IMG/VR virus record: IMGVR_UViG_3300031867_000035
Location: 12,296-76,295 of that record
Length of the DNA stretch: 64,000 nucleotides
From: a virus
Lineage: Duplodnaviria > Caudoviricetes
Direction: 5' to 3' (one strand)
The translations under genes were made by a program, and so were the position numbers. How positions within the stretch are numbered: position 1 is the stretch's first letter; the number at the start of each line of letters is the position of its first letter. Below, one piece after another: positions 16,723 to 45,769 of the stretch. The notes below the pieces were generated by a model. It was not told the origin of the DNA, did not search any database, and saw only the letters and a list, made by a program, of their open reading frames with translations.

Positions 16723-16745
16723 AATAATTTTCCTCTCTTTTTATT

Positions 16746-17974: not shown

Positions 17975-18048
17975 TTAGTAGTATGGATTATTTCTAACCC
18001 ATACTACTCGGTTGAATATTTAATTATTGCATTCAACACAAACTTAAA

Positions 18049-18264: not shown

Positions 18265-18285
18265 TATTTTCTTCTCCTCTTCTTT

Positions 18286-19155: not shown

Positions 19156-19246
19156 TTTCTTTTCCTCTCATATTTTTATAATATATTTTTTTGCCTGCAG
19201 CCCAGGCTCTGCTTCCAAGGCTGGCCGTTTACGCCAGCTAAATAAG

Positions 19247-19732: not shown

Positions 19733-19838
19733 CAGATTGAGTACTTAAATACTCAATTAGAGATACGGACTTTTATCAAGCCCGTGAATCTCTCGGCTGA
19801 GTATTCAAATACTCTTTAGGCCTTATAAGGCTAAAAGC

Positions 19839-21149: not shown

Positions 21150-21178
21150 TTGACATTTGTCATTATTCGTGCTATACT
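21150..21178 (+). promoter_or_regulatory. Near-consensus sigmaA promoter for rightward arm
   Basis: TTGACA (21150-55)-17 bp-TATACT (21173-78) with TG extended -10. Confidence 0.85.
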
Positions 21179-23210: not shown

Positions 23211-23286
23211 CGGAGAGTAGAGCAGTGGTTAGCTCGCTTGGCTCATACCCAGGAGGACGGGGGTTCAAATCCCTCCTCTCCAACCA
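23211..23286 (+). tRNA. tRNA-Met(CAT), initiator (fMet) type, CCA encoded
   Basis: 76-nt cloverleaf CGGAGAG TA GAGC AGTGGTTA GCTC G CTTGG CTCATAC CCAGG AGGAC GGGGG TTCAAAT CCCTC CTCTCCA ACCA; C1-A72 mismatch and A11-U24 are initiator hallmarks. Confidence 0.95.
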
Positions 23287-23325: not shown

Positions 23326-23358
23326 ATAAGGCAACAGATAACGTTGTCTTATTTTTTT
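23326..23358 (+). terminator. Intrinsic terminator after tRNA
   Basis: ataaggcaac-7 nt-gttgtcttat followed by T-run. Confidence 0.85.
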
Positions 23359-23372
23359 GTCTATGATATAAT
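23344..23372 (+). promoter_or_regulatory. sigmaA promoter for the giant gene, overlapping the tRNA terminator
   Basis: TTGTCT (23344-49)-17 bp-TATAAT (23367-72) with TG extended -10. Confidence 0.75.
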
Positions 23373-26400: not shown

Positions 26401-29400
26401 AAATAGTAAATACTTTTATAGCTAAAAGATTTGAAATGCTAACTGATATAACTACAGAAGGTAATGAAGAATTAAGAAACAAAGAGTTAGCAGAATTAGA
26501 GACATATTTAAATTCTGAATACTTTAAGTTCCATTCTTTATCTACTTCATCAGCTACAGCAGATGTTTCTTATACAATGGTTCCAGTTTATGATGATAAA
26601 GACAATACTAAAATTAAAACATATAAATTGGATAGCACAGCTACAGGAGATAATATTCTTATTAAGTTATTAAGTAACTACGATAAGAACAAGGCTGTTA
26701 TTGAAGCTCTATGCAATAGATATCATCTTATTGATGTAGTTAAAAATAACGATGGTACTTTAACTATTAATACAGCTAATATGGCTCCTTGGTATGCTCT
26801 TGAATTAGATAATTCAAAGAACAATCAATTATTAGCAGATATTTCTAATAATAAATATTTAAAAACATTTATGGACGTTATAGACTCAGTTGCATATATG
26901 TTTGAAAATTCAGACTTAAATGAATTAAATGTTGTTGATTATGATGAACCTTTAATTCTAAAGTTAAGAGTAGCTACAGGTAACACTAATGGTTCTAATG
27001 AACAAGAATATATCAATATTTATTTGATACCAAGTAAGATAAGTGGCAACATCGATACAGGTACAAGTTATGGTGATGTTGCTAATAGACTTATGGCACT
27101 TCAAGGTATCTTATACTCAACATACGGTTTATTCAAACAAGCAGCTGATGGTGTAGTAAATAATGAATCAGCTGTAAAATATCTAGCACAATTAGGTGCA
27201 TTACTTACAGAAGAAAAAGCAATGGACCCATTCTATGATTTCTTAAAACTATTTAACTCAGATAACGAAGAGGAGAGAAGATTAGCTATAGAAGAGAATC
27301 TACCTAAAGCTGTTATGGCTATATTAAGTAGATGTAAATTTAATATGGTTGATGGTAAAGAGCCTTCTGATTCTGTATTAACTAGAAAGCAATTATTAAC
27401 ATTTGTTAAAGCTGGTGTCTTTGGAGAAAAAGGTGAGTATGCCTTATTAAATAAAATTATTACAGAGAATTCTTCTGGTAAAAATGGTAATGCTTCAGCT
27501 AATAATATTGCTAAGATTGCTCAAGAAATTTTAGACTATGTTAATACTATAGACAAGATTGAGGGTACTCTAAAAATCTTAAACGACTATGCAGAAAATA
27601 CTAAAACTGATTTATCAGCTAATGAAATATCTAAGCTTAAAGATTGTGTTAACACATTAAAAAATAATCAAGACTTAACCGATTCTTTAGATGCAGATGG
27701 TATGTTACCTGACACAATCAAAAGATTATTAAAAGAGAGTACACTTGAAAATTTTTGGCAAGGGTCCCAAAAAAGAGACAGTCATTTGGAAGCCCTATCA
27801 AAAAACTTATTAAGACTGTCAGACAAAAACATCCAAAATCAGGAAGAGCTAAAGACGCTTCTTAAAAAATTCTTAGATGAAGATTTGATGAGTATTCAAA
27901 TTGTTAAAGATAATCCTTTTGAGTTATCAAAACAATTCTTAATTAGATATTTCAACTCTTTTGATAGCTATAAAAACTCTTTTGATAGCTTTAAAAAAGT
28001 ATCATACTTCTTAGAAGCATTAAATACTTCTGATTTTAAAGACTTCTTAAAAAATCCTACAGATTTTATTAATGATTATAATGCCAAAAATTCCGCACCT
28101 GGATATAATATTAAAAATTTCGCTCCTGACTTAAAGTTAGAAGACTTTGGTCATTTATTTATTACTAACGCAAAAGGTGTTAGAAAGACAGATTATAATT
28201 TCTTGTTAGGCTTAACATTAATAAATAAATTCAGAAATGATTTAAGTAAGAATGATTTCGTGGAAGCTTCTTTCTATGATACTGAAACTTACTTAGATTC
28301 TTTATACAATAACGTGATTAAAGACCCTAACTCTGTTGAGTTCCAATATATCAGTAGACTATACAAAATAGCTACCGACAAAGATTTAAATATTCATATG
28401 CTTAGCATATCAGACCCAACAGCTAAAAATTACAAGAGACCTTTCAGTACTTTAATGGTACATAATGCTGATGGCACAACAGAGAGTATTGGGGATTTAA
28501 TTTATAAAAGTAATAAAGCTGCATCTGTTCTTGTAGAATCTATAGTAGATGATGCTATAGAAAGTAAGATGGAACTATTACAAGATGGTATAGACTATTA
28601 CTGGAGGGATACTACAGTTACCCCAAAACAAAATGTTATTGAGATAGATATGCTAAACTTCTTACCAGCTAATTTAAGAATAGCTTTAAAGTCTTTCTTA
28701 AATAGTAGTGACCTAGCTACAAAGATGGGTGCAGAAGCAAAAATTAAATCTGAAGAACTTGCTAAAGAATTTAAAAATTTATTAGCAGGACATTCTTCAA
28801 ATGCTACTTATTCACAATATAAAGCTTATAAAGTTTTACTTTCTGATTGTTTAGCTTCTGGTAATTTCATATTAAGATATAACGTAGATAACGCTGCATC
28901 TATGAATAGTTTAAAAGTTTTCTTAACTTCTTGTGGTTATGATAACTTTGATGTTGATGCTGCAAGAAACGGCATATCTGAAATAGAAGGATTAAATTTC
29001 AAAACAGTAGATACTCATAACATTAATTCAACTTTAGCAGCAGAAAAATTCTATCGTGCTGCAAGATTATATAAAACAAAGTATGGTATTGCAAAGCCAA
29101 TATTAGGTGAGAAGATTAAAAAGAACTACACCAATGTTCTATTCAATTTATTCTCGGGAATAACAAAATTTAATGATGATACTAATATACAGCTTCTTGA
29201 TGAAGATGGTAAAGCAATTCCTTATTACAGTATTATTTATAAAAAAACTGACCCTAACAAAGCATACACTTTCGTAAATGCTTTTGGTAATACTGAACAA
29301 GCACGTTCTGAAAAAGGTACATTAAGTGGTGGTGCACAGACATTACAATATATAAATAAGTATAGAGGATTAGGTATAGATGTTAAAGATGATAACTTAT

Positions 29401-32400
29401 CTTTAGATTCAAAATCTTTTAAATCATTTACAATAGTTAGATTAGCAGAAAAGACTGCTGAATACTTAAACAACTTAACAGGTAAACAAGCTCAAACTAT
29501 TCAAGTAACAATACCTAAAGCTGAGCAAGACACATTCAAAGAGATGTATGAGGATGGTAAAGGTTTCTTTAAAATAATGGGTGAACCTGAAGGAGATACA
29601 TTTAGACTAGAGCCTACTTATAAATCTGCAGAAGAGTTCTTGGCTTATGTTAATGAAGAAGGCTTTGATATAAGACAAGTCTTACCTGTTGTTTGGAATA
29701 ATGATAAATCAATTAAGAATACAGAGTTTAGAGCTTATGAATATATAAGTAATGAAACTTTGTTTTCCGAGTTAGCTAATTTAAAGATTGAAGGATTAAA
29801 AACTATTGATGATTTTATTAACTTCCAACCTATCCCTAAAGATGAAATATATAGTTTTGATTCTAAAGAATATTCAGATTTCTGTTTAGCACACTCTAAT
29901 AAGAATGTAGGAAATATTCTACAAGATTTGGGTGATATAAAAAATAATTATTATTTAGCTTGTCTAAAATATGAATTAGGACTTTCAAAAGCTTATTCAG
30001 ATTATGCTATTAGTTATCTAGGCCAAGATGCAGACTTAATTGATTTAGCTAATCCTAGAATTTATAAGATACTAGGTTCATTATTAAATGATGGTTCAAG
30101 TTTAGATGAATACAAATTCAGCTACTTATTAAATAAGAACTATACTATAACAGAAGATGATGTTAATAAATTACTTAAAGCTTTAAACGAAGGTATAACT
30201 AATTCAGAAAATATCTTTCCAGAGCAAGCTACTGATACAGATAATGTAGATACAAAAAATAATTTCACTTCACTTGACGTTGAAAAACTTAACTCATCTA
30301 ACAACGTATCATTAGATATTAAAAAGGAAACTATAGCTAAATTATTAGATGTACTAAGAAACTCTGAAGATTATTTAATTACTAGATTATCAGAACCCAT
30401 TGATTTAGTTCAACCAGATAATTTAATTTCTTGCTTAGCATTATTCTGCGAAAATTCTGGAGGTTCATTGTCTATTCCTATGGAATACTTAATGCGTTCA
30501 TCAAAGAAGCAACGAGAAGCATTCTTTACATTCTTAAATGCTATTATCGCAAATCCAACAGAATATAATTTTAGTGATGATGATATTAAAAAGTTAAACG
30601 ATTTAATAACATTATTAAATACTAAAATAGATTTAATGACTAAAATAAATCCTACTAAAGATGTAGATGTTAAACCTGCAAGAGTTATATTTGAAAAAAA
30701 TGCTGTAAGTGCTCCAAGAGTAGGTGTAGAACCAAAAGCTGGTTTCTTAAGTAATGGTACTGGTAAACTATCGAATGCACAATTACAAAGAATAACAGAT
30801 TATATAGTGGCAGCAGAAAATAATAAAGTTGACGTTGCACCATTCATTAAGTTATCTAGTATTAATCCAAATGATAGTGTTGTAGAAACTCCTTTCAAAC
30901 ACAGCTTAATCAAATTATTAAATGCAACAGTATGTAAAAATTCCGATAAACCAGGTTCAACTATGGTTTATAATATGGATAGTGATGAAGCTATAGTTAA
31001 TGCATTAGTAAGTGTTCTTGCTTTTACAGAAAACACTAAACTATTATTGCAAGATTTAGGTGTGCCTGAGATTCAAAAAATTCCTTTAGATATATTAATG
31101 GAGTTAGGTTTAAAAGCAAATCTATTAACTACTGGTGCTGACTACCAAGCAGAGTTCGCATCATCCCTTATTCTAAAATGGAATAAAGAAACTAACGAAT
31201 ACTCAATAGTTCCTTTAAGAACTTCATCATCAGATACAGAACAAAGTTTATATAGATATTTCTTAGGCTTAAAGACTGGTGATTCTGATGTTAATGATAT
31301 AACTTTAAAAACAATAAACGAAGATATAGCTAATAATCCTACCCATTATTTCTTATTATCTTCTTCAAAAAATGCTTTCTTAGAAAGTCCTGATGGTTAT
31401 AACGAAACAACAAGACTTCTATATTTAAATGATATCAATGTTCAAAAGAGCTTAAGAGAAAATATGGTTAAAAAAGCAATTATAGCTAGAGATGGATTTG
31501 TACTTAATGTTCCTGGTGAAAATGATTTAATGAATTTATTAGATTCATATTATAATGTTCACGCAGTAACAACTTATGATGTATGGAGAAATGTTGTTGA
31601 TTCTCTACGTACATTAGGCGTATCAGATTCTGTTGCAGACTTATTGTATCCTACAGTAGAGAGTTTATATGTAGGCAACCCATCTTCTTTAAACGACCAA
31701 TGGATACAAGATACTCTAGCAGAATTCATTGACAGCTATAAAGGTAAAGTTCCTTCAGTACAATTCAAAATTTTCTCAGATGCAATAGCTTGGGGAATAA
31801 CTAATAGGGTATTAAAAGCTCAAGATATAGCAGCTTTAAAGAATAATGAAATTGAAATAGAGGCTGCTTATAGAGAAACTCAATTAAAAAAAGGCATAAC
31901 TCAAAAAGAAATATCTAATAATACAGAACGTGTAGAAGCTATAATAGATTCTATCAAATCTAATGATACAGATATAATAGATTATGCAAAGCAAAATATT
32001 AAATCATTAGATAAGGATACTCAAGTATATCTAATTCAAAAATTATTATTAGATAGAAAAGATGGTTTTGATTTATATGCTATTCTTAATATGAGCTCAA
32101 AAAATAAAACGTTATTTGATATTTCAGAAAGTATAAGACCTACTATTAATAACGAATTATCAAATGACTGGGTTCATTCTCCTAAGAATAAAAGTAAAAA
32201 CATTACTGCCACAAATGTAGTATCAGATACAAATCACGTTGTTTATGATGCTGAATGGTTTATACCAGAAAAAGATAAGAAAAATAGTTTTACAGATGTA
32301 TATCAAATAGGCTTATGCTTACGTAAAGCTGTTAATGATAAAGATAAAGCTAGAATTATTGATAGCGATACATTAAATAATTTAGAGAAGCATAATATTT

Positions 32401-35400
32401 TAATTAAAAAGAATATTATGAACAACAAAAATAAATTATATGTTGAAGCTAAAGATTCTTATGATGCAAAGATAAAAGCTTGTACAAGTGGTAAAGATAC
32501 TTATGTAGACTCAAAAACAAATGTTATTTACCATATAATCGATGGTGGTCCTAATTCTACATTAGAGGATGATGTTAGATTAGCTTATACTACATTTGCT
32601 AAAATTATAAATGATAATGATGTATCTGTAATTATGTCTTACGGTGGTAAGAATGATAATAGAGAAGAAATAAGTGATAACAACTTAATAAGACACTGGT
32701 TAGGTGATGCTTTCTTTAATGATGTAGATGAGCTAGATATATTAAATGATGTAGCTTACAAAGTGTGGTCACGTACTACAGAAGATATGACTTCTTATTC
32801 AATGGATTCAATGCGTAGAGAAGGTAAGATTAATTTAAATAACTCTCTTTTAGAACACGATGCAGTATCTGATAGTTTAGATGAATATGAGTTATTTGTT
32901 AAAATAATTAATAACAAAATTAATATAGATAACTTATACTTAAAGCCTTTATCTGACATTGCAGAATTATTTGGTGAAGATGTAGATTACAGAAATTGGT
33001 CTGATGATTTCAAGAATACTTTGAAAGCTGTTAAATTTAATGAGTTAAAAGATATAACAGATAACTTAAAAGATATTGTATCTAAAATAGATATAGATAC
33101 TTCAGTTTTTACAAGAAGTAATGAAGCTATAAAATCTGTTATGGATGCTTATAAATTAACATTCGAACACGTATGGAGAAGAATGGAATTTAAAGATTTA
33201 GAGAAAGTTAGAAATAACTTCCTAGATATTTATGATTCAAGTTATAATTCAACTTACTTTGCTTCTATTAAGAATAAAAAACATAGAACAGAAGTTAGAA
33301 ACATTCTTCTAGGCATTGTAAACGAAAGATATGATTTAAATGAAGGTTTCTCTGCTGTATTGGAAAGAGACCCTGTAACTAACAAATTTAGAACATCTGA
33401 TATTAAAGGTGTAGAAAATTTAAAAACCGCTTTAAAGTATATGACTTCTATATTAGCCGAAGCCGCAAGACTATATAAAGAGGATACAAAAAATCCTTAT
33501 AATCCAAAATATATTTCAAACAGAAATAAAACAAAGTCCTTCTATTCAGAAGATGCACAGACTATAGCAAGATATATTGCTGAAGCTAAAACAACTTTTG
33601 AAATTACAGACTTAGATGCAAGACGTAGTAAAAGAAATGACTTTAAGCAAAATGAGAAAACTTTAACACAGGCTGTAATAGATTCAAAGTTTAATTTAGA
33701 TAATAATACATCTGAAGCCTTAAGAGATATATATTCAATGTTAAGAGATGAATCAACTGATTTGCTTTCATTGAAAGATTATAAGCATACAGTAACTAAC
33801 CAAGATTTTTATATCCAAATTGCTAGACCTTTGGCTAATGTATTAGGTATTAATGTTCAAGATTCTGACGCTACAGCATCAGATGAAGTTGTTTCAAAAA
33901 CATTCTCCGATAAATTAAGAGCTGCCTTATTCAATGATTTACTAAGTGTATATGGTAGAACAAATGCAGGTAAGAGAACTCACGAGCAAATAATAAAAGA
34001 TAATACTTACAATGGAATAAGACATACCTTAATAGATAAAGCAGATACTTATAAAAAAGGAATGATTGAGGCATTTACTTCTAGTAAGGGTTTATTTACA
34101 GGTAACTTAAGAACTAAAACTGCTTTATGGTCAATGGGTCACGAAAGATATAAGAAGACAATGACTGGTGAATATGGTACTTTATATATAGGCGAAAAGC
34201 TTCTTACTTCTAAGAAAGCATTTAAAGATTTATTTGGTATGTATAAAGCCACATATAAAACAGATAGTAATGGTAAGCAAGTTGTTGACTATGATGATAA
34301 CAATCAAAACACTTTCTATACTTTAGTATGGAGACAACCATTACAGCAAGAAACTCCTATTCAACTTATGAAAGTTAAAGTTGTTGATGGTGATACATTC
34401 TCTATGACAACCACAACTGCCGATAACTTCTTTAATGGAGACTTCGATGGAGACCAATATTTCTTCTCTCATCCTTCTCAAATAACTAATACTAAAGAAG
34501 CTAAGAGATTATTTGAGCTTCAAAACAAACAGACAGAATTATTCTATAATCTATTTAAGAAGGATAATAAATTAACGCTTACTAATCAAATCTTATTAGA
34601 AGAAAAATATAGAAATTTAGCTAGAGATGTATTCTTAAGCAGTAACGTCCAAAGTGCTTTTAAGGCTATATTTGCTAACATTGAATTATCTAGAGATAGT
34701 ACAGGTAAAGCAACTAAAGTTAAAGACCTTCCTATATTCTTAGGTGATGCCACATTAATAGATAAATTTAAACAGGAATATTATAAAGCCTTTGATACAA
34801 TAGTTACTTCAAAAGAATATAATCAACTTTCTATTGAAGATAGAGAAACATTAAGAGATTCATTCCTCGAAAACTTTGGTGTAAGAATAATTAAAACTTC
34901 AAAAGGTACAACAGTTCTTTCTGACAATCCATTCTATCGTGAGGATAGAGATACTACTATGAGATTAAAAGCAACTAGAAAATTCTATATGCTAGATAAC
35001 CTTTCTAATAGTGGTATGGATGCTCCAGAAAATGGCCAGTTGGCAAAGAACTATAAATGGCAAAAAGGTTCTGTTGATATGAATGAGGCTTATAGATTAT
35101 TCTACAATTCAACATTCTCTTTAAAAGAAGATGACTTACATTTATTTAGTAACTTACTTGCTAAAGAAGGTAACTCATTAAGCTCTGTAAAGATAAACAA
35201 ATATCTAGATTCTTTATCATCTTTAATAGGTAAAGATATGGTTGACTGGGCTAAAGAATATGTTGACAAAGAAATAATAACATACGTTGAAGAACAGCAT
35301 AAGTTAGGGGTTAAAGATGCTCAAACTTATAACATAGTTGTAAGAAGATTATCTAATTTAAGTAATGCTATTCAGCAAAATATAATAACTTCAAAAGAAT

Positions 35401-38400
35401 ATAATGATGTATTAAATGCTTTATTACCAAAAGTTTTAGCAGTAGGTAATGAAGAAGATTACCAAAAGTATAAAGCACTTCATTCCTTTATGTATAATGA
35501 AGGATACATATCTGATAAAGACCCTAGAGGATTCTCTTCAGAAGTTCTTCAAAAACCAGAAGGTGATAAGCTTAACAATGGTATAGATATTCTTGTTGAA
35601 GATACTTATCTATTTAATAAACTATTTGATGATGAACAAAGAAAAGGATATATAAATACTATAAGTAATGACTCAGGAACTTTACAAGATTTATATCTTA
35701 ACTTTATATTCAGAGGTGATAATAAAAATGCAAACTTTGAGTATAGAGATGGTGCAGAAATTCTTACAAGAGATACTATCACTTCTTTAAAAGGTAAGAG
35801 CAATAAGCTTCTAGGTTTAGGTTCAGCTTATGTTGCTATTGATATATCTGAAGATGGTTCATTAACAGATACTATTGCTTTATTCAATAATGGTCAGAAC
35901 TCTTTATCATTTACTAAACCTGTAGAAATAAATTTCTCTGGATTAACTAAAAAGCAAAAAGATAATCTATTAAATCTAATTAAGAATACACGTGGAAATT
36001 CTATTATCAAGAGTGAGGATATAAGTAGAGCACTTAATACAAACTTTGATAATAAGCCTTATCAAATAGCAGGCTTTGTAGATTCAGTGGGTAATTCTCT
36101 ATTAAATAATTTAAACAATTTATCTCCTTCAACTTTAAACCACGCTAAATTAATTCTTTTAAACAGAACGCCACTATACGCTATGCTAGAAACAAATGAA
36201 ATTAAACTAGGTATGGTAGGTTCAAAAGCTTTAAAAGGTACAGTAATGAATGGTTTAAATCTAGAAGGCAGAGGAGAGAATACTATATCAGTAAAAGAAT
36301 CTAAAAAGAATAAAGATGTAGTTGCTACTGCTAAAGACAGAACTAAAGCTATTAGACCAGACTTAGCTATCAGTGCCAGCTTATTCAAAGATATTAATAG
36401 TGATTATAATCTAGATTACGAAGAAGTACTTACAACTACTGATGGTAGATATAGAATAATAAAAGTAAACGACTTAGCAATTCTTAATGCTTTAAATTTA
36501 GATGCGCAAGATAGAGCAAGCGAACGTTACATAGATACAATCGGTATAGTTCAAGGTGCCCACGGTACAGGTTCTCTATTCAGTTATGGTAATATGTTCT
36601 TAAGATTCGATGCTGATAATAACAAATGGGAATTCGACCCTCAAGGCTATAATGAATTAAAAGATAGATTACATTATCATAATTTAGAATCCTCTTATAT
36701 GGATGGTAATGGTGCAAGAAATGTAAGACTACTAAGAATAGCTTACTTACTAGATGCTTTATCAGAAGATAAGAGACAAAGAGTATGTATGGAGATTCTT
36801 GGTAATACATCAGTTCCTACAATAGAGGCCGCCTTAGAATGTATTTATTCTGCAGGTGATTTAGGTGGAGATTTTGGTGAAGACCTTGAAGCTCATATCT
36901 GTGACCAATTATCAAAAGAAGAGTTTGAAAAACTAGCTCTTAGACTTAATTCAACTTCTAAGAAAAATTTATTAGGTAGAGTTGCATTTAGTGAAGAAAT
37001 GAATGACCAATTAGTCAATAGGTATGCTACATTCTTTAATGAGGATGTTAATAATCCTATAATTAAAAAGCATCAAAAACCTTCAGACAATGTGAGAGTA
37101 TCTAATGTTAGAAACTATTCTGATAATGCTGATTACTTAGCTAGACACGAAGGTAGTACTCACGATACTAATACTTCTTATGTTTCAAAAATTTCTTTAT
37201 TAAGAACTATTCTTGAAGAAAACGGAGGCTTCTTAAATCTTGCAACATTAAAATCTGCAGCTGATGAAGATATAATAAATATAGCAGATGGCTCACTAGG
37301 TACTTTATATAATGGCTATAAGTTTACTGATGCTAGAGAGAGCTTAGCCTTAGACCCTTATGATGAAGAAAAACAATCATCTAAAAAGGCAGGTAACAAA
37401 GAGCCTTCTTCTCAATATAATGAGGTAAGAGATAATCAAAGATTAATACCTTTATTATCTAAAAGTGTTTTAAGTGATAGTTATAAAGATTCATTAACTA
37501 ATGCTAACGCAGATATATTATTAAATAACAATTTATATCAAGATGCAGCTGCTTATAATCAAGCTAGATTTATGCTACCTTTCTTCTCAGAAGGAACTGA
37601 TTCACAGATATATGATGCTACAAACCTATTCTCTAATAGATTCGTTGACTCATTACATCAAAAATATCCTACAATGAATGAAGAAGGTCAGCTAAGAATA
37701 GGTACTAAAACATTCAAACCAGAAGTAAATAAGGAAACTAATATGCTTAGCCATTTAACAATGGAAGAAGAGGAACAGAGAATCATTCAAAACTCTAAAT
37801 CTCCTAAGCAAGTTAAGTTACTATTAGAAAAGCATAAAGAGATTACTGACCAGCTAACTAAAGAAGATTATGAAACTTTAGGTTTAACAGACCAATTAGC
37901 AGTGGCAGACTTAATTTCTAAAACAGGTAATTCTAAAATAATGTCTTTCTTAAATGAGCTTTGTAAAGAGTATGACATTAAGACAGAGTATGAAAACTAT
38001 AATACTACTCCTGTCCAAGGCGACCCATTCTCCTTACTAAGAGCTATAAGAAGAGATAATAATGATGTACTACACGTTGCTGAATTCTATTCAGATGATA
38101 ATGGTGTTAAGCTAGTAAACTCTTGGCTTAGAAGCTGGGGTTTCAAATCTTCAGATAATAGAGATATATCTTTAGGTAATCAAACAATCAATGCCAGAAA
38201 TAAATTCGCTGATGTAAAAGACCAATTACTTGGTGATGATTATGCCTTATTAATGTATAATGCTAAGCACAACAAAGCTTCCTATATGTTATTAAATCAG
38301 TATATGAATGCTGAAGAATTAATTGAAGCTTATGATGAATTAACTTATAGACAAGATGTCTGGGTAAAGACTTTAGGTAGAGACAAATATACCGAGTATT

Positions 38401-41400
38401 TAAATGAAGTTAATAGACTTATTGATGGAGATATAAATTCTCTAAGAAATAAGCAACAAGAAATACTAAAGAGTCATCCAACATTATCTATCTTAGTAAA
38501 AGCAGCAAGCAGAATAAATAAGAGACTTATGCTAGAAACAAGAGCACAAGACCCTTATGCATTCTTAGGTTGGTTTACAGATTTAGATTATGGCACTAGA
38601 CCACACTTACTAGGTTATAAAAATGTACAAATAAAAACATTTGTAAAAAATGATTTCATTAAGGGGTTAAACTTTGATTTAGAAAAAATGCCTGAATCTA
38701 AGTTAGCTTCTATCTTCCATTCAAAAGATTACGGTTATGTTCCTATGGTTGAGAAGATAGCTTCACAATTAGCAGCTGCTAAAACAACAGACAGTCTTGC
38801 TAAGTATATGAAGTCAGCTGGTTATATGCAAAATGTTGATACATTTAATATAGCTATGGACACTTTACAACAAACACTTGATAAGTATTTCGAGACTTAT
38901 ATATCAGAACCTGGTAATGATAGAGAAAATAACAATAGAGCTACATACGACACATTAGTTCAACAATGCTCTTTAGCTGGAATCGATATGTATGATGTAG
39001 GAGACTATGCAGATGAATCTTCTATATATGATTTATTTAAATACTTATACAGAATTAACGTTGAGAATAAAGAAAAATTAGGTATGGCTGGATTAGGTTC
39101 GGCAGATTATACTCAAGAACTATATCAAAGATTAATTAATGCTAATGATTCTCAAAAGAATATTTATAAGACTGCTTCTAAAACTAATGAAATACTATTA
39201 AGTATGACTTCTGTATTAGTTAATATGATGGAAGAACTTGATTCAAATAAAACATTATTAAAAGATATTAACAATTCTTTATTAAAGTTAGAATCAAATG
39301 GTAAAGTATTAGTTGATAGATATGGTCAAAAAGTTAATAGAGGTAAGTTAATTAATGATTATTCAAGTTGGCACATTTTTGAAGACTTCTTACATTTAGC
39401 TTCAAGAGATTTAGATAACAGAGATTATCTATCAACTTACATTGCTAAACAAGCATTAGAAGGTAATGTATACTTAATGGATTCATCAGTAGCAGACCAA
39501 CTAGAAAAGAAAGTATTTACTAAACGTATTCATTCTCAAGTGAGTGAGGCTATTAAAAAAGCAAAAGCAATAGCTACAACATTAGTAATGTCTTCACCTG
39601 TCCAGTTATTAGACAGAATGATTAACTTCCCTATGTTTGATATAGGAGTAACTGGTTCAGCAGATGTAGAAACATTTAAATATATGCCTACTGCTATTTC
39701 AACAGTAACTAAATTCATACAAGGTGGTGATTACTTAACAGAGGATGATATTGCAAAAGATGATAATATGAAACTTCTTTTAAGATTCTTATCTGCTCAA
39801 GGTAATTTAGATATTAAGAATGCAACAGTTCGTGGCGAAAGAATATCCGTAACAAATATTCCAGGTATTAAACAATACTTAAAATTAGTTAATACAATGT
39901 ATCAAGCAGGAAATTTAATTCCTAGATTCGCTTACTTTATGAACCTAGTTAATAGTGCTGATATTAATTATAAGATTGCTAAAAACAAAACTGGTGTTGC
40001 TTATCATCTATATGATTCAATAGTAGGTGTTGAAGGAGATAAAGCTACTGGTATCAAGTCTTATATTGATAATCCTGAAAAAACTCCTTATTATAAAGAG
40101 TTCGGTGAAAACGCTAAGAATGTGGCAGACCTAGATGCACAAGCTGTACAAATCATAGCAGAGCATAATGGTATCGAAGGTAATATGCCTTATGCAGCTA
40201 GATGGTTAAACGAGAATTATAATACAATGTTCTTAACATTCCCTATGGCTTTAATGCGTTGGGGTAAGAATAGACTTCAATCTCTAGGCTATGCATTTAT
40301 GGAATCTGATTCTACAGACGTAAACTACTTATTAAATCAAGCAAAGAGTGTATTAATAACTCAAACTATTTTACTTGCAATTCAAATCTTATTATCTCAA
40401 AATACTCAAGAATATCTTAAAAAGAAATTAACAGGTAAGGACGATGAGATAACTGAAGAAGAAGAGGAGAATGCACAGAATATATTATTCCGTGGTGGCT
40501 GTGTAAAGTTATTTGAATCAGCATTAAAAGGTGAAGAAGTAACTACAACGGCTCAGAATAGAGGACCAGCATCTGGTTTATTCAACAGCTATGTAGCAGA
40601 CTTTATTCCAGCATTTAATGATGGTCAAAAATTTATGACTACATTAAAGAATCAATTAGTATCTCACACTTGGGGTCACGTACCTTTTGTAATTAAAGAT
40701 ACAGTTGAATCTATCCCAGGTAACACTGCATTACAATCTGCTTCTTGGTACGTACCAGGTAATAACTTCTTCGAAAACTATGGTAGAAAGATACTTGGTT
40801 ACAATTTAGGTTCTACTCAAGCTAATGCATTTATAGATTACTTACAAGCTCATAATGCTAATAATGATTTAAATGAGTCAAGTGTAGCTAGATTACGTAA
40901 TGCTATGTCGTATGCATTTAGCAAAAAATATTCTAATTTAAAAACAAACAAATCAGAAGTAAGAAACTATAAGAAAGCTTTTGAATTAGTTTATAATTAT
41001 TTAGATACAGTATATGGTAATTCATCAATTACTTCTGCTACTACATCAACTAATAAAGATTTAAAATCTGAATTAAGAAAAGCAGTAGAAACTTCTAACT
41101 CATCTGCAGATGTATATTATACAATTCAGAGAGCTATATCTAAAGGAAGTTCTTATTCAGATATTCAAAAAGCTTTAAACTCTATATCTTTAAGAGAAAG
41201 ATTATTAACTCTTAGAAATTATAATGCATTTATAGATTCACTTGATAGTAGTGAAAAAGCTACAATCAAAACTGCATTACTATACGAAGAAGAAAATTAT
41301 CCTTACTTGGAAGATATATTAACCGATGTTAATAATAAAGCTCACAAAGAATATCTAAATTCTAACGCTTCTTATAGTTCTAGAAATGTAGCTTCTATAT

Positions 41401-41672
41401 TAAAAAGTATGGCTTACAATACTCCAACTTATTATAATTACAACTCAAATCGAAATAATTATATTAGTCAAGCTAGATTCTTAAATAATTACAATAAATC
41501 TTATAGTAATTATCAAAAGCAGCAACAAGATGCTTATGAAAGAATGCGTAACATTGTTGACTATGGTACTTCAAAAGATATTTGGGGTACTGAAACTCAA
41601 CATTACAAAGATGGTACATCCTATACAAAGAAAGATAGAGGGTACAATCCATTTAAAGGAGGCAATAAATAA
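23424..41672 (+). CDS. 6082-aa polyvalent virion protein: membrane segments + DEDDh exonuclease + two-barrel RNA polymerase
   Basis: VWRQP...NGDFDGDQ (aa ~3635-3678), KGLFTGNL, LGLGSAYVAI...TDTIAL, KLGMVGSKALKG, RPDLAIS, LNLDAQDRASER; exonuclease VVYDAEW...EHDAVSD; next to terminase/portal/capsid genes. Confidence 0.85.
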   Translation: MERDYKNNNIFYENTEDLNIGKTNQKPAEVEQSTPKFSIKLDKDEEAARQQGFLNFNSGVSMIDTSEYSQSDIRSMLGSRTKVDLSDTKEDTGTYNTTKALAEDYVSQDEEYITSGRLWKDIYGSTAYAELKHKCGLSKTDSYTDYYNKTKYIPKGYEIEAKLLLAEEKRMNYYMEYKKGNISKSDFLYQAYGKDLMKEDGVDLSSPLYWYNKAKKNDFTNPLDSDTFLSQLITDSEKLWHAETWYQSAATRNIGSTLAGLSTGSELSEESFQNVFKQQVEALKPYFDNDVKKIMTYYQAGFLGSAFSPMIDIDGDGKYDYYYHSDGKLYAVDGSSGTGSSTCSIVYNDDGSVHSVQVHEAVDGWLDSLWDGFTGFFIGFADLFALIPGLINTDAMANYEAWKKRTIADEDRVVFDSMDKWNGDDWGNAVAEGVGTIAGMVLLLVLTYGIGNAISASGEAAKAGMDAGLQGAVKITSQETATTFAENIAKEAADKFTSKALQRAFMDNALKAATKEISKNVALDAAIKTALKEGAKKFGASAARATALNIGRNVAAAVVGKGGFTTTISQAKGGTLLNTTLAKVAQRSSSTGLKKIAANAWVRSSLTATELAVRDYITVTTQLKAKNKALQYLEYATKGEVKALSDGEIAGRAWLVAGTDLVISTMFRAVGSQGATSRFVKDSDTLLKNINANTADVINRYAQHLKTYCRIDAAFDIFENITTSAVQAAASNPYAKLGSEESWATAMQSIVNPAFIASNLYATYNNLVSWGGRNGAPVSTSIYDDRVEAIARQINISANSLGDQLDTLSEALVAKNSNVSNVIEIQESLDRVKQKTMETLNNSSNSRIDNLLQAAQDLDTLFTEDVVAANKKEILDSFNITLSEYNQIKALIKTYNDNNPDKPIGLITGKVFYSAQKENDANVAKAYKAALDLMTKRSTELKAKEEQVAKIFLKGARFVMTKANEVSLKYVNQLIAETTFKTSGVHLEERYQKIVNTFIAKRFEMLTDITTEGNEELRNKELAELETYLNSEYFKFHSLSTSSATADVSYTMVPVYDDKDNTKIKTYKLDSTATGDNILIKLLSNYDKNKAVIEALCNRYHLIDVVKNNDGTLTINTANMAPWYALELDNSKNNQLLADISNNKYLKTFMDVIDSVAYMFENSDLNELNVVDYDEPLILKLRVATGNTNGSNEQEYINIYLIPSKISGNIDTGTSYGDVANRLMALQGILYSTYGLFKQAADGVVNNESAVKYLAQLGALLTEEKAMDPFYDFLKLFNSDNEEERRLAIEENLPKAVMAILSRCKFNMVDGKEPSDSVLTRKQLLTFVKAGVFGEKGEYALLNKIITENSSGKNGNASANNIAKIAQEILDYVNTIDKIEGTLKILNDYAENTKTDLSANEISKLKDCVNTLKNNQDLTDSLDADGMLPDTIKRLLKESTLENFWQGSQKRDSHLEALSKNLLRLSDKNIQNQEELKTLLKKFLDEDLMSIQIVKDNPFELSKQFLIRYFNSFDSYKNSFDSFKKVSYFLEALNTSDFKDFLKNPTDFINDYNAKNSAPGYNIKNFAPDLKLEDFGHLFITNAKGVRKTDYNFLLGLTLINKFRNDLSKNDFVEASFYDTETYLDSLYNNVIKDPNSVEFQYISRLYKIATDKDLNIHMLSISDPTAKNYKRPFSTLMVHNADGTTESIGDLIYKSNKAASVLVESIVDDAIESKMELLQDGIDYYWRDTTVTPKQNVIEIDMLNFLPANLRIALKSFLNSSDLATKMGAEAKIKSEELAKEFKNLLAGHSSNATYSQYKAYKVLLSDCLASGNFILRYNVDNAASMNSLKVFLTSCGYDNFDVDAARNGISEIEGLNFKTVDTHNINSTLAAEKFYRAARLYKTKYGIAKPILGEKIKKNYTNVLFNLFSGITKFNDDTNIQLLDEDGKAIPYYSIIYKKTDPNKAYTFVNAFGNTEQARSEKGTLSGGAQTLQYINKYRGLGIDVKDDNLSLDSKSFKSFTIVRLAEKTAEYLNNLTGKQAQTIQVTIPKAEQDTFKEMYEDGKGFFKIMGEPEGDTFRLEPTYKSAEEFLAYVNEEGFDIRQVLPVVWNNDKSIKNTEFRAYEYISNETLFSELANLKIEGLKTIDDFINFQPIPKDEIYSFDSKEYSDFCLAHSNKNVGNILQDLGDIKNNYYLACLKYELGLSKAYSDYAISYLGQDADLIDLANPRIYKILGSLLNDGSSLDEYKFSYLLNKNYTITEDDVNKLLKALNEGITNSENIFPEQATDTDNVDTKNNFTSLDVEKLNSSNNVSLDIKKETIAKLLDVLRNSEDYLITRLSEPIDLVQPDNLISCLALFCENSGGSLSIPMEYLMRSSKKQREAFFTFLNAIIANPTEYNFSDDDIKKLNDLITLLNTKIDLMTKINPTKDVDVKPARVIFEKNAVSAPRVGVEPKAGFLSNGTGKLSNAQLQRITDYIVAAENNKVDVAPFIKLSSINPNDSVVETPFKHSLIKLLNATVCKNSDKPGSTMVYNMDSDEAIVNALVSVLAFTENTKLLLQDLGVPEIQKIPLDILMELGLKANLLTTGADYQAEFASSLILKWNKETNEYSIVPLRTSSSDTEQSLYRYFLGLKTGDSDVNDITLKTINEDIANNPTHYFLLSSSKNAFLESPDGYNETTRLLYLNDINVQKSLRENMVKKAIIARDGFVLNVPGENDLMNLLDSYYNVHAVTTYDVWRNVVDSLRTLGVSDSVADLLYPTVESLYVGNPSSLNDQWIQDTLAEFIDSYKGKVPSVQFKIFSDAIAWGITNRVLKAQDIAALKNNEIEIEAAYRETQLKKGITQKEISNNTERVEAIIDSIKSNDTDIIDYAKQNIKSLDKDTQVYLIQKLLLDRKDGFDLYAILNMSSKNKTLFDISESIRPTINNELSNDWVHSPKNKSKNITATNVVSDTNHVVYDAEWFIPEKDKKNSFTDVYQIGLCLRKAVNDKDKARIIDSDTLNNLEKHNILIKKNIMNNKNKLYVEAKDSYDAKIKACTSGKDTYVDSKTNVIYHIIDGGPNSTLEDDVRLAYTTFAKIINDNDVSVIMSYGGKNDNREEISDNNLIRHWLGDAFFNDVDELDILNDVAYKVWSRTTEDMTSYSMDSMRREGKINLNNSLLEHDAVSDSLDEYELFVKIINNKINIDNLYLKPLSDIAELFGEDVDYRNWSDDFKNTLKAVKFNELKDITDNLKDIVSKIDIDTSVFTRSNEAIKSVMDAYKLTFEHVWRRMEFKDLEKVRNNFLDIYDSSYNSTYFASIKNKKHRTEVRNILLGIVNERYDLNEGFSAVLERDPVTNKFRTSDIKGVENLKTALKYMTSILAEAARLYKEDTKNPYNPKYISNRNKTKSFYSEDAQTIARYIAEAKTTFEITDLDARRSKRNDFKQNEKTLTQAVIDSKFNLDNNTSEALRDIYSMLRDESTDLLSLKDYKHTVTNQDFYIQIARPLANVLGINVQDSDATASDEVVSKTFSDKLRAALFNDLLSVYGRTNAGKRTHEQIIKDNTYNGIRHTLIDKADTYKKGMIEAFTSSKGLFTGNLRTKTALWSMGHERYKKTMTGEYGTLYIGEKLLTSKKAFKDLFGMYKATYKTDSNGKQVVDYDDNNQNTFYTLVWRQPLQQETPIQLMKVKVVDGDTFSMTTTTADNFFNGDFDGDQYFFSHPSQITNTKEAKRLFELQNKQTELFYNLFKKDNKLTLTNQILLEEKYRNLARDVFLSSNVQSAFKAIFANIELSRDSTGKATKVKDLPIFLGDATLIDKFKQEYYKAFDTIVTSKEYNQLSIEDRETLRDSFLENFGVRIIKTSKGTTVLSDNPFYREDRDTTMRLKATRKFYMLDNLSNSGMDAPENGQLAKNYKWQKGSVDMNEAYRLFYNSTFSLKEDDLHLFSNLLAKEGNSLSSVKINKYLDSLSSLIGKDMVDWAKEYVDKEIITYVEEQHKLGVKDAQTYNIVVRRLSNLSNAIQQNIITSKEYNDVLNALLPKVLAVGNEEDYQKYKALHSFMYNEGYISDKDPRGFSSEVLQKPEGDKLNNGIDILVEDTYLFNKLFDDEQRKGYINTISNDSGTLQDLYLNFIFRGDNKNANFEYRDGAEILTRDTITSLKGKSNKLLGLGSAYVAIDISEDGSLTDTIALFNNGQNSLSFTKPVEINFSGLTKKQKDNLLNLIKNTRGNSIIKSEDISRALNTNFDNKPYQIAGFVDSVGNSLLNNLNNLSPSTLNHAKLILLNRTPLYAMLETNEIKLGMVGSKALKGTVMNGLNLEGRGENTISVKESKKNKDVVATAKDRTKAIRPDLAISASLFKDINSDYNLDYEEVLTTTDGRYRIIKVNDLAILNALNLDAQDRASERYIDTIGIVQGAHGTGSLFSYGNMFLRFDADNNKWEFDPQGYNELKDRLHYHNLESSYMDGNGARNVRLLRIAYLLDALSEDKRQRVCMEILGNTSVPTIEAALECIYSAGDLGGDFGEDLEAHICDQLSKEEFEKLALRLNSTSKKNLLGRVAFSEEMNDQLVNRYATFFNEDVNNPIIKKHQKPSDNVRVSNVRNYSDNADYLARHEGSTHDTNTSYVSKISLLRTILEENGGFLNLATLKSAADEDIINIADGSLGTLYNGYKFTDARESLALDPYDEEKQSSKKAGNKEPSSQYNEVRDNQRLIPLLSKSVLSDSYKDSLTNANADILLNNNLYQDAAAYNQARFMLPFFSEGTDSQIYDATNLFSNRFVDSLHQKYPTMNEEGQLRIGTKTFKPEVNKETNMLSHLTMEEEEQRIIQNSKSPKQVKLLLEKHKEITDQLTKEDYETLGLTDQLAVADLISKTGNSKIMSFLNELCKEYDIKTEYENYNTTPVQGDPFSLLRAIRRDNNDVLHVAEFYSDDNGVKLVNSWLRSWGFKSSDNRDISLGNQTINARNKFADVKDQLLGDDYALLMYNAKHNKASYMLLNQYMNAEELIEAYDELTYRQDVWVKTLGRDKYTEYLNEVNRLIDGDINSLRNKQQEILKSHPTLSILVKAASRINKRLMLETRAQDPYAFLGWFTDLDYGTRPHLLGYKNVQIKTFVKNDFIKGLNFDLEKMPESKLASIFHSKDYGYVPMVEKIASQLAAAKTTDSLAKYMKSAGYMQNVDTFNIAMDTLQQTLDKYFETYISEPGNDRENNNRATYDTLVQQCSLAGIDMYDVGDYADESSIYDLFKYLYRINVENKEKLGMAGLGSADYTQELYQRLINANDSQKNIYKTASKTNEILLSMTSVLVNMMEELDSNKTLLKDINNSLLKLESNGKVLVDRYGQKVNRGKLINDYSSWHIFEDFLHLASRDLDNRDYLSTYIAKQALEGNVYLMDSSVADQLEKKVFTKRIHSQVSEAIKKAKAIATTLVMSSPVQLLDRMINFPMFDIGVTGSADVETFKYMPTAISTVTKFIQGGDYLTEDDIAKDDNMKLLLRFLSAQGNLDIKNATVRGERISVTNIPGIKQYLKLVNTMYQAGNLIPRFAYFMNLVNSADINYKIAKNKTGVAYHLYDSIVGVEGDKATGIKSYIDNPEKTPYYKEFGENAKNVADLDAQAVQIIAEHNGIEGNMPYAARWLNENYNTMFLTFPMALMRWGKNRLQSLGYAFMESDSTDVNYLLNQAKSVLITQTILLAIQILLSQNTQEYLKKKLTGKDDEITEEEEENAQNILFRGGCVKLFESALKGEEVTTTAQNRGPASGLFNSYVADFIPAFNDGQKFMTTLKNQLVSHTWGHVPFVIKDTVESIPGNTALQSASWYVPGNNFFENYGRKILGYNLGSTQANAFIDYLQAHNANNDLNESSVARLRNAMSYAFSKKYSNLKTNKSEVRNYKKAFELVYNYLDTVYGNSSITSATTSTNKDLKSELRKAVETSNSSADVYYTIQRAISKGSSYSDIQKALNSISLRERLLTLRNYNAFIDSLDSSEKATIKTALLYEEENYPYLEDILTDVNNKAHKEYLNSNASYSSRNVASILKSMAYNTPTYYNYNSNRNNYISQARFLNNYNKSYSNYQKQQQDAYERMRNIVDYGTSKDIWGTETQHYKDGTSYTKKDRGYNPFKGGNK

Positions 41673-43255
41673 TGGCACAAACAATAGTTATAACTCCTAA
41701 CTATAAGCCTACTCCAAAACAAATATTATTACATAACGCTCCTGTATCTTACGATGATATTTGGATTATATGTTATGGCGGTGCAAGAGGTGCTGGCAAA
41801 TCTGCTGGCATCCTTGCCGATGCTTTTATGTTTTGTCAAACTTATCCTGGTGCAAAATGTTGTATCCTACGTGAAACCCTAGATGCTGTTAAGCAGTCTT
41901 TCTTGGATAAACTACCAACATTATTTCCACCAGAAGTTAATGGTATAAAGATATATGAGTACAAAGAGAAATCTAGTTCTTGGTATCCTTCACGTTCTAT
42001 AGTTTTCCCTAATGGTAGCTACATTACCTTGCAGCGTGTTGCAAACTATCAAGAAGCTAAAGCAAAGCAAGGATGGGAATTCCATTACTTAGCTATCGAT
42101 GAAGTAACTAAACAAGAAAAACGTACAGTTGATTATCTATTAACCTGCGTACGTTCCGCCACGGTATTAAATAAATATACAGGTAAACCTATTCAGATTC
42201 CAACTAAGGTTGTGTTTGGATGTAACCCTGGTGGTATAGGACATAAGTGGGTAAAAGAAAGATTTATCGATACAACAGTAGTAAAATATGATGAGCATAA
42301 AACACCTATCCAAACTAAAGACCATATTGAATTTGTTCAAGACCCTAGAGACGGTCATTGGATAAAGAGATTTGTTAGATTCATACCAGCATCCTATATG
42401 GATAACCCTTATCTAAATGCTTCTTATGTAGCTAACCTTGAGTCTTTATCTGAACATCAAAAGCAGATGGATATGTATGGTAACTGGGATGTAGTAGCTG
42501 GAAGATATTTCGATTTAAAGCCAGAGCAATTACTTCCACCACAATCTATAGCACAAGACTTAGAGAGACTTGCAGGCCACGTAGAAATTTTTGCTTCAAT
42601 AGACTGGGGTTACAAACCTTCCTATTATTGTTGTTTATGGCACGCAGTATTCCCTGACCATAGAGTTATCACTTTTAAAATACTATATGGACAAGAACTT
42701 GTCTTTGAGGATTTTGTAAAAGAGATAGCAAAAGAATCTGAGAAGTTTGAAATTTCAGCTACGTGTTTACCTCACGATATGTTCCGTGGTGGTGATAGGT
42801 ATAGAAATGATACTGGAAAAATAATAGGTGAAACTAAATCAGATGTATTTGAATTCTATGGATTAAATCCTATAGGCGTAGAATCTGGTAAAGGTAAAGT
42901 AATGATGAGATATGATAAAATACATTCAGCAACTACCCTAAAGAATCCTGATGGTGTTTATAAGTTCAGGATATCCACGGCTTGCACAGATTTAATTGAA
43001 GAATTAAACAATGCAGTTCACGATGATGATAATCCTGAATTGATTGCACCTAAGTGTAAAGACCACGCAATAGATGCTTACGGTCATTTCCTAGTATTTT
43101 ATTCTGATGACATTGAACCTCTAGGCTTTGAATCTTTAACAAAAGACAATAGAACATATCTTCAGATTTTATTAGATGAAGATGAAAAGAAACTAGAAGA
43201 AGAGGAGGAAGATGAATACACAATTAGTGTTGATAGTATTTTCGATTTATGTTAA
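41672..43255 (+). CDS. terL: Terminase large subunit
   Basis: Walker A YGGARGAGKS, Walker B LAIDEVT, GCNPGG, nuclease ASIDWGY and DHAIDA. Confidence 0.95.
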   Translation: MAQTIVITPNYKPTPKQILLHNAPVSYDDIWIICYGGARGAGKSAGILADAFMFCQTYPGAKCCILRETLDAVKQSFLDKLPTLFPPEVNGIKIYEYKEKSSSWYPSRSIVFPNGSYITLQRVANYQEAKAKQGWEFHYLAIDEVTKQEKRTVDYLLTCVRSATVLNKYTGKPIQIPTKVVFGCNPGGIGHKWVKERFIDTTVVKYDEHKTPIQTKDHIEFVQDPRDGHWIKRFVRFIPASYMDNPYLNASYVANLESLSEHQKQMDMYGNWDVVAGRYFDLKPEQLLPPQSIAQDLERLAGHVEIFASIDWGYKPSYYCCLWHAVFPDHRVITFKILYGQELVFEDFVKEIAKESEKFEISATCLPHDMFRGGDRYRNDTGKIIGETKSDVFEFYGLNPIGVESGKGKVMMRYDKIHSATTLKNPDGVYKFRISTACTDLIEELNNAVHDDDNPELIAPKCKDHAIDAYGHFLVFYSDDIEPLGFESLTKDNRTYLQILLDEDEKKLEEEEEDEYTISVDSIFDLC

Positions 43256-43846: not shown

Positions 43847-45769
43847 ATGAGACAGATGGCGAAAGATATTGCAACATATATCGAAATGTTTGTAGATGAC
43901 TCTATGTCAAGTTTAAACCCATATATTCTGCAAGGCAAATTAAATAATGAGTATATAGCAGGCAATCAAAATAAAAAAATAAATGTAAGAAAATTAAGTA
44001 TAGAGCCTAAGCAGACAGACCCTAATGTATATGTAGAGAAGAAAACTTTCAATAGACTTTTGCCTATATATCTTACACGCTATGGTATACTCACTCAAAA
44101 TATGCCTATCCCTGGTATCATCCCTCATAGCAATAGTAGCAAAGCAGTTCAAGATTCTTTAGAAGTAAATAAATTTATAAATGAATTTATGTTACAAACT
44201 AATTTTAAAAGCATATATGAAAAAGCTATTAAACGAAATGATGTCTATGGAATAGAATGGTTTAAAACTGGTATAGATTGGACAGCTGGTGATAAGATAG
44301 CTGACCTAGAAGATGTTACAATAGGAGATACAAAAGGTAAACTTTCTATTTACGAAGGTAGACCTTTCGTTATGCCAGTACCTATTCACGAAGTCTTTGT
44401 TGATTCCTACTATATTGAATCAATGGATGATGTAAATGAGTTAGTACATAGACGTGTATTCCCTTGTGAGTATATTAAAGCCAGATGGGGGTTTGCAGCT
44501 GAAAAAGAATCCGTTGAAGATTCTAAACTATCTACTTATCCTAGATATACTAACTTCGGTATGTCAAATGGTGGAGCAATAGAGTATGCTTACGTTTATG
44601 AGTATTACAAAAAGCCTGATGCTTTATATCCAAAGGGTAGATACGTTGTAGTTTGTAATAAAAAAGTTTTATATGATGGTATCTTACCTTATGAGAATGC
44701 CGCTAACGGCAAAAGAGTTATACCGTTTGATATACTAAGGCCTCAAACAATTCCTAATAAATTAATAGGTGTAACTGTTTATTCTCAGTTAATCCCTATT
44801 CAAGATACATATAATGCTGTAAAGAATAGATACCTAGAGTATGTAAACCATATTGCTATAGGTCAGTTATATTATTGGGAAGGTTCCTTAATAAATAAAA
44901 ATAATTTTACTAACAAACCAGGTAAGCTTATAGGTTTAAAGAGAAATGCAAAAGCTCCAGTACCTGTGCAGAAAGATAAACTTGCTCAAGAGTTTATTCA
45001 ATATTTAAAAACACTTGAGGATGATATGCTAGTTACAGCAGGACTATCACAGATGTCTGCATTTGGTTCTACAAAATCAAATGTAAGAACAGATGGAGTA
45101 GTAGATAAGCTTGCCGAATCCGATGAAAATAAATTAGTAAATGCCTTAGACAATGTATCAGATTGTATGATAGAGGTATTTAAAAAGGTTATTTATTTAG
45201 AAAAACAAAGAGGTAAGACTCTAACTGAACAATTAAAACTTGCAAAGTTAGATACTTATATGTTAAAATATAAATTAGAAGAGGTGGATGCCGAACAGGT
45301 TACGATTATTAATCGAGACTTCTTGATGAAATCAGACCAAGTGTTCGACAAAAAACTTCAACAAGCAGGTAATTTCGGTTTGTATAATCCTGAGTCTGGC
45401 TTAAGTTATCAGGCAAAAGTGGAGCTTCTTAATTCAATGCACGCTAATTATCTTAGAGATACATTAGACCCTGCAGAAAGAAGCAACCACGATTTAATTT
45501 GCTGGGAAAATGACTTAATGCTAAACAAAAAGGAGATACCACAAGCTTACGATTACCACAAACACGAACAACATATTGCTGAACACAATGTTTTCCGAAT
45601 CTCGCCTGAGGTACTGTGTCTTAAAGAACGAGATGAAAAAGCGTGGGAAATGCTACAGGAGGCTATATCAGCACACATTGAGCAGCATAAGAAGTTCGTA
45701 CAGCAAAGTCAACAAGGTAATGTATTACAAAATGCCAAGGACGCACTAAAACGTACAGCTAAAAAATAG
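43847..45769 (+). CDS. Portal protein (podovirus/P22-like)
   Basis: 640 aa between terL and scaffold/capsid; clip/stem-like PIQDTYNAVKNRYLEYVNH, MLVTAGLSQMSAFG. Confidence 0.8.
   Translation: MRQMAKDIATYIEMFVDDSMSSLNPYILQGKLNNEYIAGNQNKKINVRKLSIEPKQTDPNVYVEKKTFNRLLPIYLTRYGILTQNMPIPGIIPHSNSSKAVQDSLEVNKFINEFMLQTNFKSIYEKAIKRNDVYGIEWFKTGIDWTAGDKIADLEDVTIGDTKGKLSIYEGRPFVMPVPIHEVFVDSYYIESMDDVNELVHRRVFPCEYIKARWGFAAEKESVEDSKLSTYPRYTNFGMSNGGAIEYAYVYEYYKKPDALYPKGRYVVVCNKKVLYDGILPYENAANGKRVIPFDILRPQTIPNKLIGVTVYSQLIPIQDTYNAVKNRYLEYVNHIAIGQLYYWEGSLINKNNFTNKPGKLIGLKRNAKAPVPVQKDKLAQEFIQYLKTLEDDMLVTAGLSQMSAFGSTKSNVRTDGVVDKLAESDENKLVNALDNVSDCMIEVFKKVIYLEKQRGKTLTEQLKLAKLDTYMLKYKLEEVDAEQVTIINRDFLMKSDQVFDKKLQQAGNFGLYNPESGLSYQAKVELLNSMHANYLRDTLDPAERSNHDLICWENDLMLNKKEIPQAYDYHKHEQHIAEHNVFRISPEVLCLKERDEKAWEMLQEAISAHIEQHKKFVQQSQQGNVLQNAKDALKRTAKK

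Follow-up and report, generated by a model that had tools for sequence, protein, structure and literature searches.

We describe here a gene of an uncultured cattle-gut phage whose giant product contains, as the evidence from sequence and from predicted structure supports, a two-barrel RNA polymerase in which the beta-prime-like barrel precedes the beta-like one. The DNA analysed (the window, 64,000 nucleotides) covers positions 12,296 to 76,295 of the 76,295-base virus record IMGVR_UViG_3300031867_000035, found in cattle-gut metagenomes; coordinates below are window positions on the plus strand unless a minus strand is given. The giant gene (23424-41672) is a single open reading frame (ORF) without internal stop, encodes 6082 amino acids (aa) and, among the large genes of the virion operon, comes first, with a stop that overlaps the start of the terminase gene. 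We consider it likely that the protein is virion-packaged cargo and that its residues ~3500-4500 form a packaged, ejected, single-chain DNA-dependent RNA polymerase for the early genes, with the beta-prime half first.

The first barrel, a beta-prime-like double-psi barrel (DPBB-A, aa ~3555-3701, 34086-34526), carries R3637, P3639 and N3671 and, at 34440-34454, the catalytic DFDGD loop with D3673, D3675 and D3677. A chance match is excluded here because aa 3630-3696 score above the curated threshold of the Pfam family RNA_pol_Rpb1_2 (PF00623; E 9e-6) and a profile of the phage family aligns with a bacterial RpoC over the stretch RxP...DxDGD (E 7e-4). The second barrel (DPBB-B, aa ~4122-4362, 35787-36509), recognised from a model and fold matches, is beta-like, bears an inserted domain resembling the flap or wall, and contains D4149, K4261 and K4271. 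Two-barrel RNA polymerases share eight residues, namely three Asp, an Arg and a Pro in the largest subunit and one Asp and two Lys in the second (PMC2919709), and all eight are found: R3637, P3639 and the Asp triad, followed 480-600 aa downstream by D4149, K4261 and K4271. In an alignment of 24 family members, whose median identity over the beta-prime half is 16%, the three Asp, P3639 and K4271 are invariant, while R3637 (22/24), K4261 (20/24) and D4149 (20/24) are less strictly kept; K4268 is invariant among close relatives only (13/24). DPBB-A lies ahead of DPBB-B in all 24, with K4271 461-619 aa past the Asp triad in every one. A first-pass annotation, made from the letters of the window, had proposed this arrangement on the strength of a series of motifs, each of which reads from the translation exactly where that annotation put it: KGLFTGNL at aa 3555 (nucleotide 34086), WRQP at aa 3636, DFDGD at aa 3673-3677, LGLGSAY at aa 4130, K4261, K4271, RPDLAIS at aa 4311 and LNLDAQD at aa 4357.

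The predicted folds point the same way. In a model of aa 3470-4500 (1031 aa; pLDDT 58, pTM 0.38; two poor alignments, A3 and A4, were left out of folding), residues 93-232 match the largest subunits, Rpb1 or beta-prime (7aoc_A, Z 7.5, root-mean-square deviation (rmsd) 2.8, 97 aligned residues; 8hil_A, Z 8.0), and residues ~620-890 match the second-largest subunits (8q3b_B, Z 6.1; 4c2m_B, Z 6.0). When aa 4111-4410 were modelled alone (pLDDT 69, pTM 0.60) and compared with a library of 48,161 chains, the top five matches were the beta-type chains of the Pol I, vaccinia, Pol IV, African swine fever virus (ASFV) and phiKZ polymerases, at Z 5.4-6.3 and rmsd 6-7 over 178-210 aligned residues, followed by many other double-psi barrels; in a second look 50 of 50 rows were Rpb2 or beta, the best matches overall having Z 5-6.5 over 178-219 aligned residues. 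The same model aligns to residues 902-1105 of gp66 (PDB 6VR4) from phi14:2, a crAss-like phage, and to residues 676-786 of QDE-1. In those two enzymes the aligned barrels precede the connectors (1095-1238 in gp66, 793-919 in QDE-1), so the barrel that is N-terminal there is C-terminal here. The comparison, made against multisubunit chains, gp66 and QDE-1, thus records beta-prime then beta, and together with residue conservation across the 24 members it upholds the earlier proposal of a two-barrel polymerase in that order.

The region ahead of the first barrel is occupied by a nuclease instead. Across the 10 full-length proteins the beta profile finds no second site upstream and there is no invariant Lys pair there, which speaks against a genuine beta-like barrel N-terminal to DFDGD. 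The nuclease, which the first-pass annotation had overlooked, as it had the size of the family, is a DEDDh (DnaQ-like) 3'-5' exonuclease domain (aa ~2936-3165, 32229-32918) with its motifs intact and in order: ExoI DxE (D2942, E2944), ExoII D (D3085) and ExoIII HxxxxD (H3145, D3150). These residues are kept in 22-23 of the 24 aligned members, the exception being a fragment without the region; the best PDB matches of the domain profile are DnaQ (8h18, E 2e-4) and the PolC exonuclease (2p1j, E 1e-3), and Pfam RNase_T is matched in 4 members. As a partial precedent, cyanobacterial polymerases that resemble RNA-dependent RNA polymerases (RdRP) have an RNase H domain attached (PMC3417536); for a DEDDh nuclease fused to a two-barrel RNA polymerase no description was found in the literature searched. 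An intact DEDDh domain whose nearest relatives are the DnaQ and PolC proofreading domains, and which in nearly all members lies 500-700 aa ahead of the Asp triad, would also suit a two-barrel enzyme that makes DNA or primers and proofreads with an exonuclease of its own, an analogue of archaeal PolD. We regard this as extremely unlikely: the phage already encodes PolA and a DnaG primase, along with an SNF2-like helicase and other replication proteins (these and PolA being read from translations); the three Asp and the ribose-reading Arg are retained; the gene lies in the virion operon; and the nuclease is of the DEDDh type and not the phosphoesterase-type DP1, which sets the protein outside PolD. 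Moreover, one relative (L038, a 77,758-bp contig in a Bacilli metagenome-assembled genome, MAG) keeps both barrels and lacks the DEDDh domain, which marks the nuclease as accessory. As part of an RNA polymerase, it may act as a 3'-5' exonuclease in RNA trimming or proofreading, or degrade nucleic acid at entry.

Between the barrels, ~195 aa past the Asp triad, lies a candidate bridge helix (34971-35063) with G3871 (24/24) and K3875 (23/24). In motif it is similar to the GYxxRR stretch that closes the bridge helix of beta-prime, and several members read like the end of the cellular Rpb1/beta-prime bridge helix; in gp66 the bridge helix is found 170-200 aa past the Asp motif. We propose that the two barrels dock as in all two-barrel enzymes, where D3673, D3675, D3677 and D4149 would hold two Mg ions, R3637 would read the ribose, K4261 and K4271 would bind the RNA end and the triphosphate, and the G3871/K3875 helix would serve as bridge helix.

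Several results weigh against this assignment. K4261 and D4149 are each substituted or out of alignment in 4 of the 24 members, and R3637 in 2; no trigger loop was identified in the region after DPBB-A. The beta half gives no match by sequence search alone, and its profile was negative against single RpoB sequences. The fold scores are modest (Z 6-8, within the range that the tool terms common, with rmsd ~6 for the beta half), and the whole-core pTM of 0.38 means that the contact between the barrels is absent from the model. Searches of deposited phages found no cultured member of the family and no cultured phage close to it. Against this, the beta-half assignment draws on motif conservation and predicted fold, and, modest as the Z values are, the identity of the top matches accords with the conserved residues. 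Extreme divergence and the loss of one catalytic residue in a few members could also describe a dead polymerase relic that serves as a structural ejection protein, but the invariant residues of the region are almost solely the catalytic ones, and we give this idea next to no chance.

The position of the gene argues for a virion protein. It is always directly upstream of terminase, portal and capsid, here the terminase large subunit (41672-43255), the portal protein (43847-45769, of P22/SU10 type in relatives) and the major capsid protein (46473-48113, a weak PHROG match, E 5e-5), followed by tail-fibre genes. The portal type fits podovirus morphology, as does the fact that no tape measure or sheath was recognised among the downstream genes. 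Within the strongly conserved N-terminal region of the giant protein (as judged by the density of invariant columns) there are hydrophobic segments at aa ~372-390 and ~427-445 (24537-24758), with a hydropathy of 1.6-1.9 at that place in 9 of 10 full-length proteins; they are a candidate membrane anchor or ejection channel. The most conserved C-terminal region (aa ~5200-6082, 39021-41672) matches no known family and presumably has a virion or ejection role. From the gene position and the hydrophobic segments we infer packaging and injection, for which crAss-like phages and P23-45 (PMC10770324) offer precedents in their giant virion RNA polymerase polyproteins. The protein would be made late with the capsid genes, packaged and ejected with the DNA, the hydrophobic segments anchoring in the membrane during ejection, and the ejected polymerase would then transcribe early genes, probably the leftward block 3185-20168. 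An RNA polymerase that stays out of the particle and transcribes middle or late genes during infection is very unlikely in our judgement: a host-type promoter match does stand directly ahead of the gene (23344-23372, resembling sigma-70/sigma-A, with TG before the -10; a match to consensus only) and packaging is deduced indirectly, but the place at the head of a structural operon, the size of 6000 aa and the N-terminal hydrophobic segments tell against it, as does the finding of comparable giant proteins in virions. The one RNA run shows only pieces that are short and of low depth, which are no evidence of expression. A second conserved DxDGDxK motif of the giant protein, at aa 312-318 in its N-terminal part (24357-24377), resembles a calcium-binding loop rather than a polymerase site.

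Upstream of the giant gene lie a tRNA-Met (23211-23286, just ahead of it), four small genes read rightward and a non-coding divergent region; the rightward block has an extended sigma-70 promoter at 21150-21178, near consensus (11/12). The genome holds no second two-barrel RNA polymerase gene. Among the leftward genes are those for DnaG, a VWA protein and three proteins with pentapeptide repeats, tandem paralogues with DUF5758 that head the leftward block (15679-16722, 16746-17948 and 18286-19155, minus strand). The palindrome GAGTA-N6-TACTC occurs three times in intergenic sequence ahead of that block (17957-17972, 19739-19754 and 19799-19814; two copies with 7-bp arms) against 0.1 expected by chance, and once in the relative G003 and not at all in G004 or G005; it may be a hairpin promoter used by the virion polymerase, or else an operator. 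Further left, on the minus strand at 5190-11180, two unassigned ORFs (687 and 394 aa) are followed by a protein (765 aa) that has a VWA domain and a long acidic repeat, together possibly forming an AAA-ATPase/VWA module. The phage also encodes a GroEL-like chaperonin (1621-3135); the small ORF before it (1152-1493) reads like GroES, and one might speculate that the chaperonin helps to fold the 6082-aa protein. At 11382-13505 of G000 C1 (ending at window position 1210), near a small-terminase-like gene and away from the main virion operon, are a 707-aa Gln/Ser-rich protein and a 273-aa protein that may be further ejection proteins.

The first-pass annotation had read an expression signature of Firmicutes/Mollicutes type, and the hints of such a host are slight: strong Shine-Dalgarno sites, TG-extended promoter matches and a single relative that was binned, with matching GC content, in a Bacilli MAG, which together point weakly to Bacillota. 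The placement of L039 in a MAG of the PVC group was rejected as probable mis-binning (GC 0.34 versus 0.59). No endolysin was recognised, too weak a basis on which to argue for a wall-less host.

Direct searches recovered 11 homologues of 5.7-6.2 thousand amino acids (kaa) and 25-97% identity, all with the same barrel order. The region is colinear in contigs from other cattle-gut studies, which, with the order shared by every homologue, shows that the arrangement is no assembly artefact. Shorter or split homologues did not turn up in these direct searches, though such forms may exist; P0012, a candidate short form of 2470 aa, was rejected as having a mis-called start, its frame being open for 5612 codons. 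Neither scanning viral contigs for patterns of the giant protein nor searching PDB sequences and deposited phage genomes with the core (tblastn, phmmer) gave a match. Further relatives were reached via the adjacent terminase, which falls into >100 clusters at 55-83% identity, many on 67-79 kb contigs from ruminant gut and other metagenomes, and is at most 28% identical to those of cultured phages. Wherever a terminase locus was retrieved with enough flanking sequence, an ORF of 5.3-6.2 kaa lies immediately upstream; it stops where the terminase begins and carries RxP...DxD[GS]D 2150-2540 aa from the protein end. In some relatives the terminase itself is broken up or longer (split gene calls at L011 17447-19776; P0108 and P0134, with an 862-aa form carrying PF14528 and 308-aa pieces), which suggests introns or inteins.

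If the protein were cut between the barrels, the same virion RNA polymerase would work as separate subunits and the reversal would be one of gene order only. The giant cargo proteins of crAss-like phages are thought to be cleaved, in virions of the Microbacterium phage Burro a protein of 4491 aa is represented by a piece of ~250 kDa, the linker at aa ~4030-4130 is low-confidence in the model and variable among members, and the beta half resembles multisubunit beta; but neither a protease domain nor a conserved cleavage motif was recognised, and in all members the spacing is kept at 461-619 aa and the frame is unbroken. Cleavage is thus unlikely, in our view, and we keep to the single chain. 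As to its origin, we lean towards independent fusion of separate beta-prime and beta genes rather than circular permutation of a chain of the gp66/QDE-1 type. Aligned to multisubunit beta, the beta barrel covers about twice as many residues as when aligned to gp66 or QDE-1. The reason is an insert in this barrel; the RdRP, YonO and NCgl1702 types are reported to lack such an insert (PMC7824862). The shared insert therefore favours fusion, a suggestion to be read with the high rmsd in mind. The composite picture, of a widespread phage family that injects a reversed single-chain RNA polymerase born of independent subunit fusion, with a DEDDh domain proofreading or trimming the product in cis, is possible, if somewhat doubtful as a whole.

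The order matters because the single-chain two-barrel enzymes checked in print are all beta first, and scenarios for the origin of RNA polymerases (fission of an ancestral chain versus repeated fusions) lean on that (PMC7281927, PMC3417536). A natural beta-prime-then-beta enzyme would mean that the core tolerates the opposite connectivity, and would favour repeated independent fusions. A minimal core of ~900 aa would test which parts are needed without clamp linker, alpha and sigma, and the fused DEDDh nuclease would allow a direct test of exonuclease editing in transcription. The giant protein is, besides, the mark of a large and unclassified group of phages of 67-79 kb (>100 terminase clusters), and the finding hints at what the unexplained giant genes of the cultured cluster EK and Burro phages may do.

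Comparison with known systems places the protein as follows: (i) In the Microbacterium podoviruses Burro (gp27, L054 9189-22664) and Akoni, of cluster EK (gp31, L055 7985-21448), a giant gene likewise heads the virion operon, divergent from leftward genes, and RxP is followed ~40 aa later by DxDGD (aa 871 and 809). Burro gp27 is virion-associated, and no function is given in print for either protein (PMC7302621). Unlike the cattle-gut proteins, the two match the beta-prime profile marginally (E 0.03-0.05) and do not match the beta, nuclease or C-terminal profiles, so that membership of the same family is not established. (ii) Multisubunit RNA polymerases (bacterial, Rpb2/Rpb1, poxvirus, ASFV, phiKZ/AR9) give the best structural matches for both barrels; the insert of the beta barrel is shared over 178-219 aligned residues, and the candidate bridge-helix motif recurs here. 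They differ in having separate subunits, or beta::beta-prime if fused, in contrast to one core of ~900 aa, around which no beta N-terminal lobes, alpha, omega or sigma were recognised. (iii) QDE-1 and other RdRP, NCgl1702 and the killer-plasmid Orf6 have the same eight active-site residues but are beta first: D709 and K743 lie ahead of D1007 in QDE-1, and the two fused enzymes are beta::beta-prime (PMC2919709). The beta-first order given by the first-pass annotation for known single-chain enzymes holds for gp66, QDE-1, both P23-45 enzymes and the fused NCgl1702 and Orf6. In the literature searched, which lacked YonO, the Sauguet 2019 review and Iyer and Aravind 2012, neither a single-chain beta-prime-then-beta order nor this phage family is described; P23-45 and NCgl1702, considered as earlier reversed cases, were rejected since both place the beta barrel first. 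(iv) P23-45 gp96 is also a two-barrel polymerase in a virion protein of >5000 aa (PMC10770324), but there the polymerase is N-terminal, B then A, in the tape measure of a long-tailed phage, whereas here it is internal and reversed. (v) Like the giant protein, gp66 is a single-chain two-barrel enzyme with a DxDxD loop, encoded with virion genes, and in crAss-like phages the polymerase sometimes lies inside a huge cargo polyprotein; its DPBB-B aligns to the second barrel here (Z 4.4, rmsd 3.9, 108 aligned residues). It differs in its loop, DFDID in place of DFDGD with the canonical Gly, and the DEDDh nuclease is a feature of the cattle-gut protein. Above all, in gp66, QDE-1 and both P23-45 enzymes (gp96 and gp64) the connector runs from DPBB-B to DPBB-A (for P23-45, PMC10770324), an order from which the giant proteins depart in 24 of 24 members, all of them with DPBB-A first.

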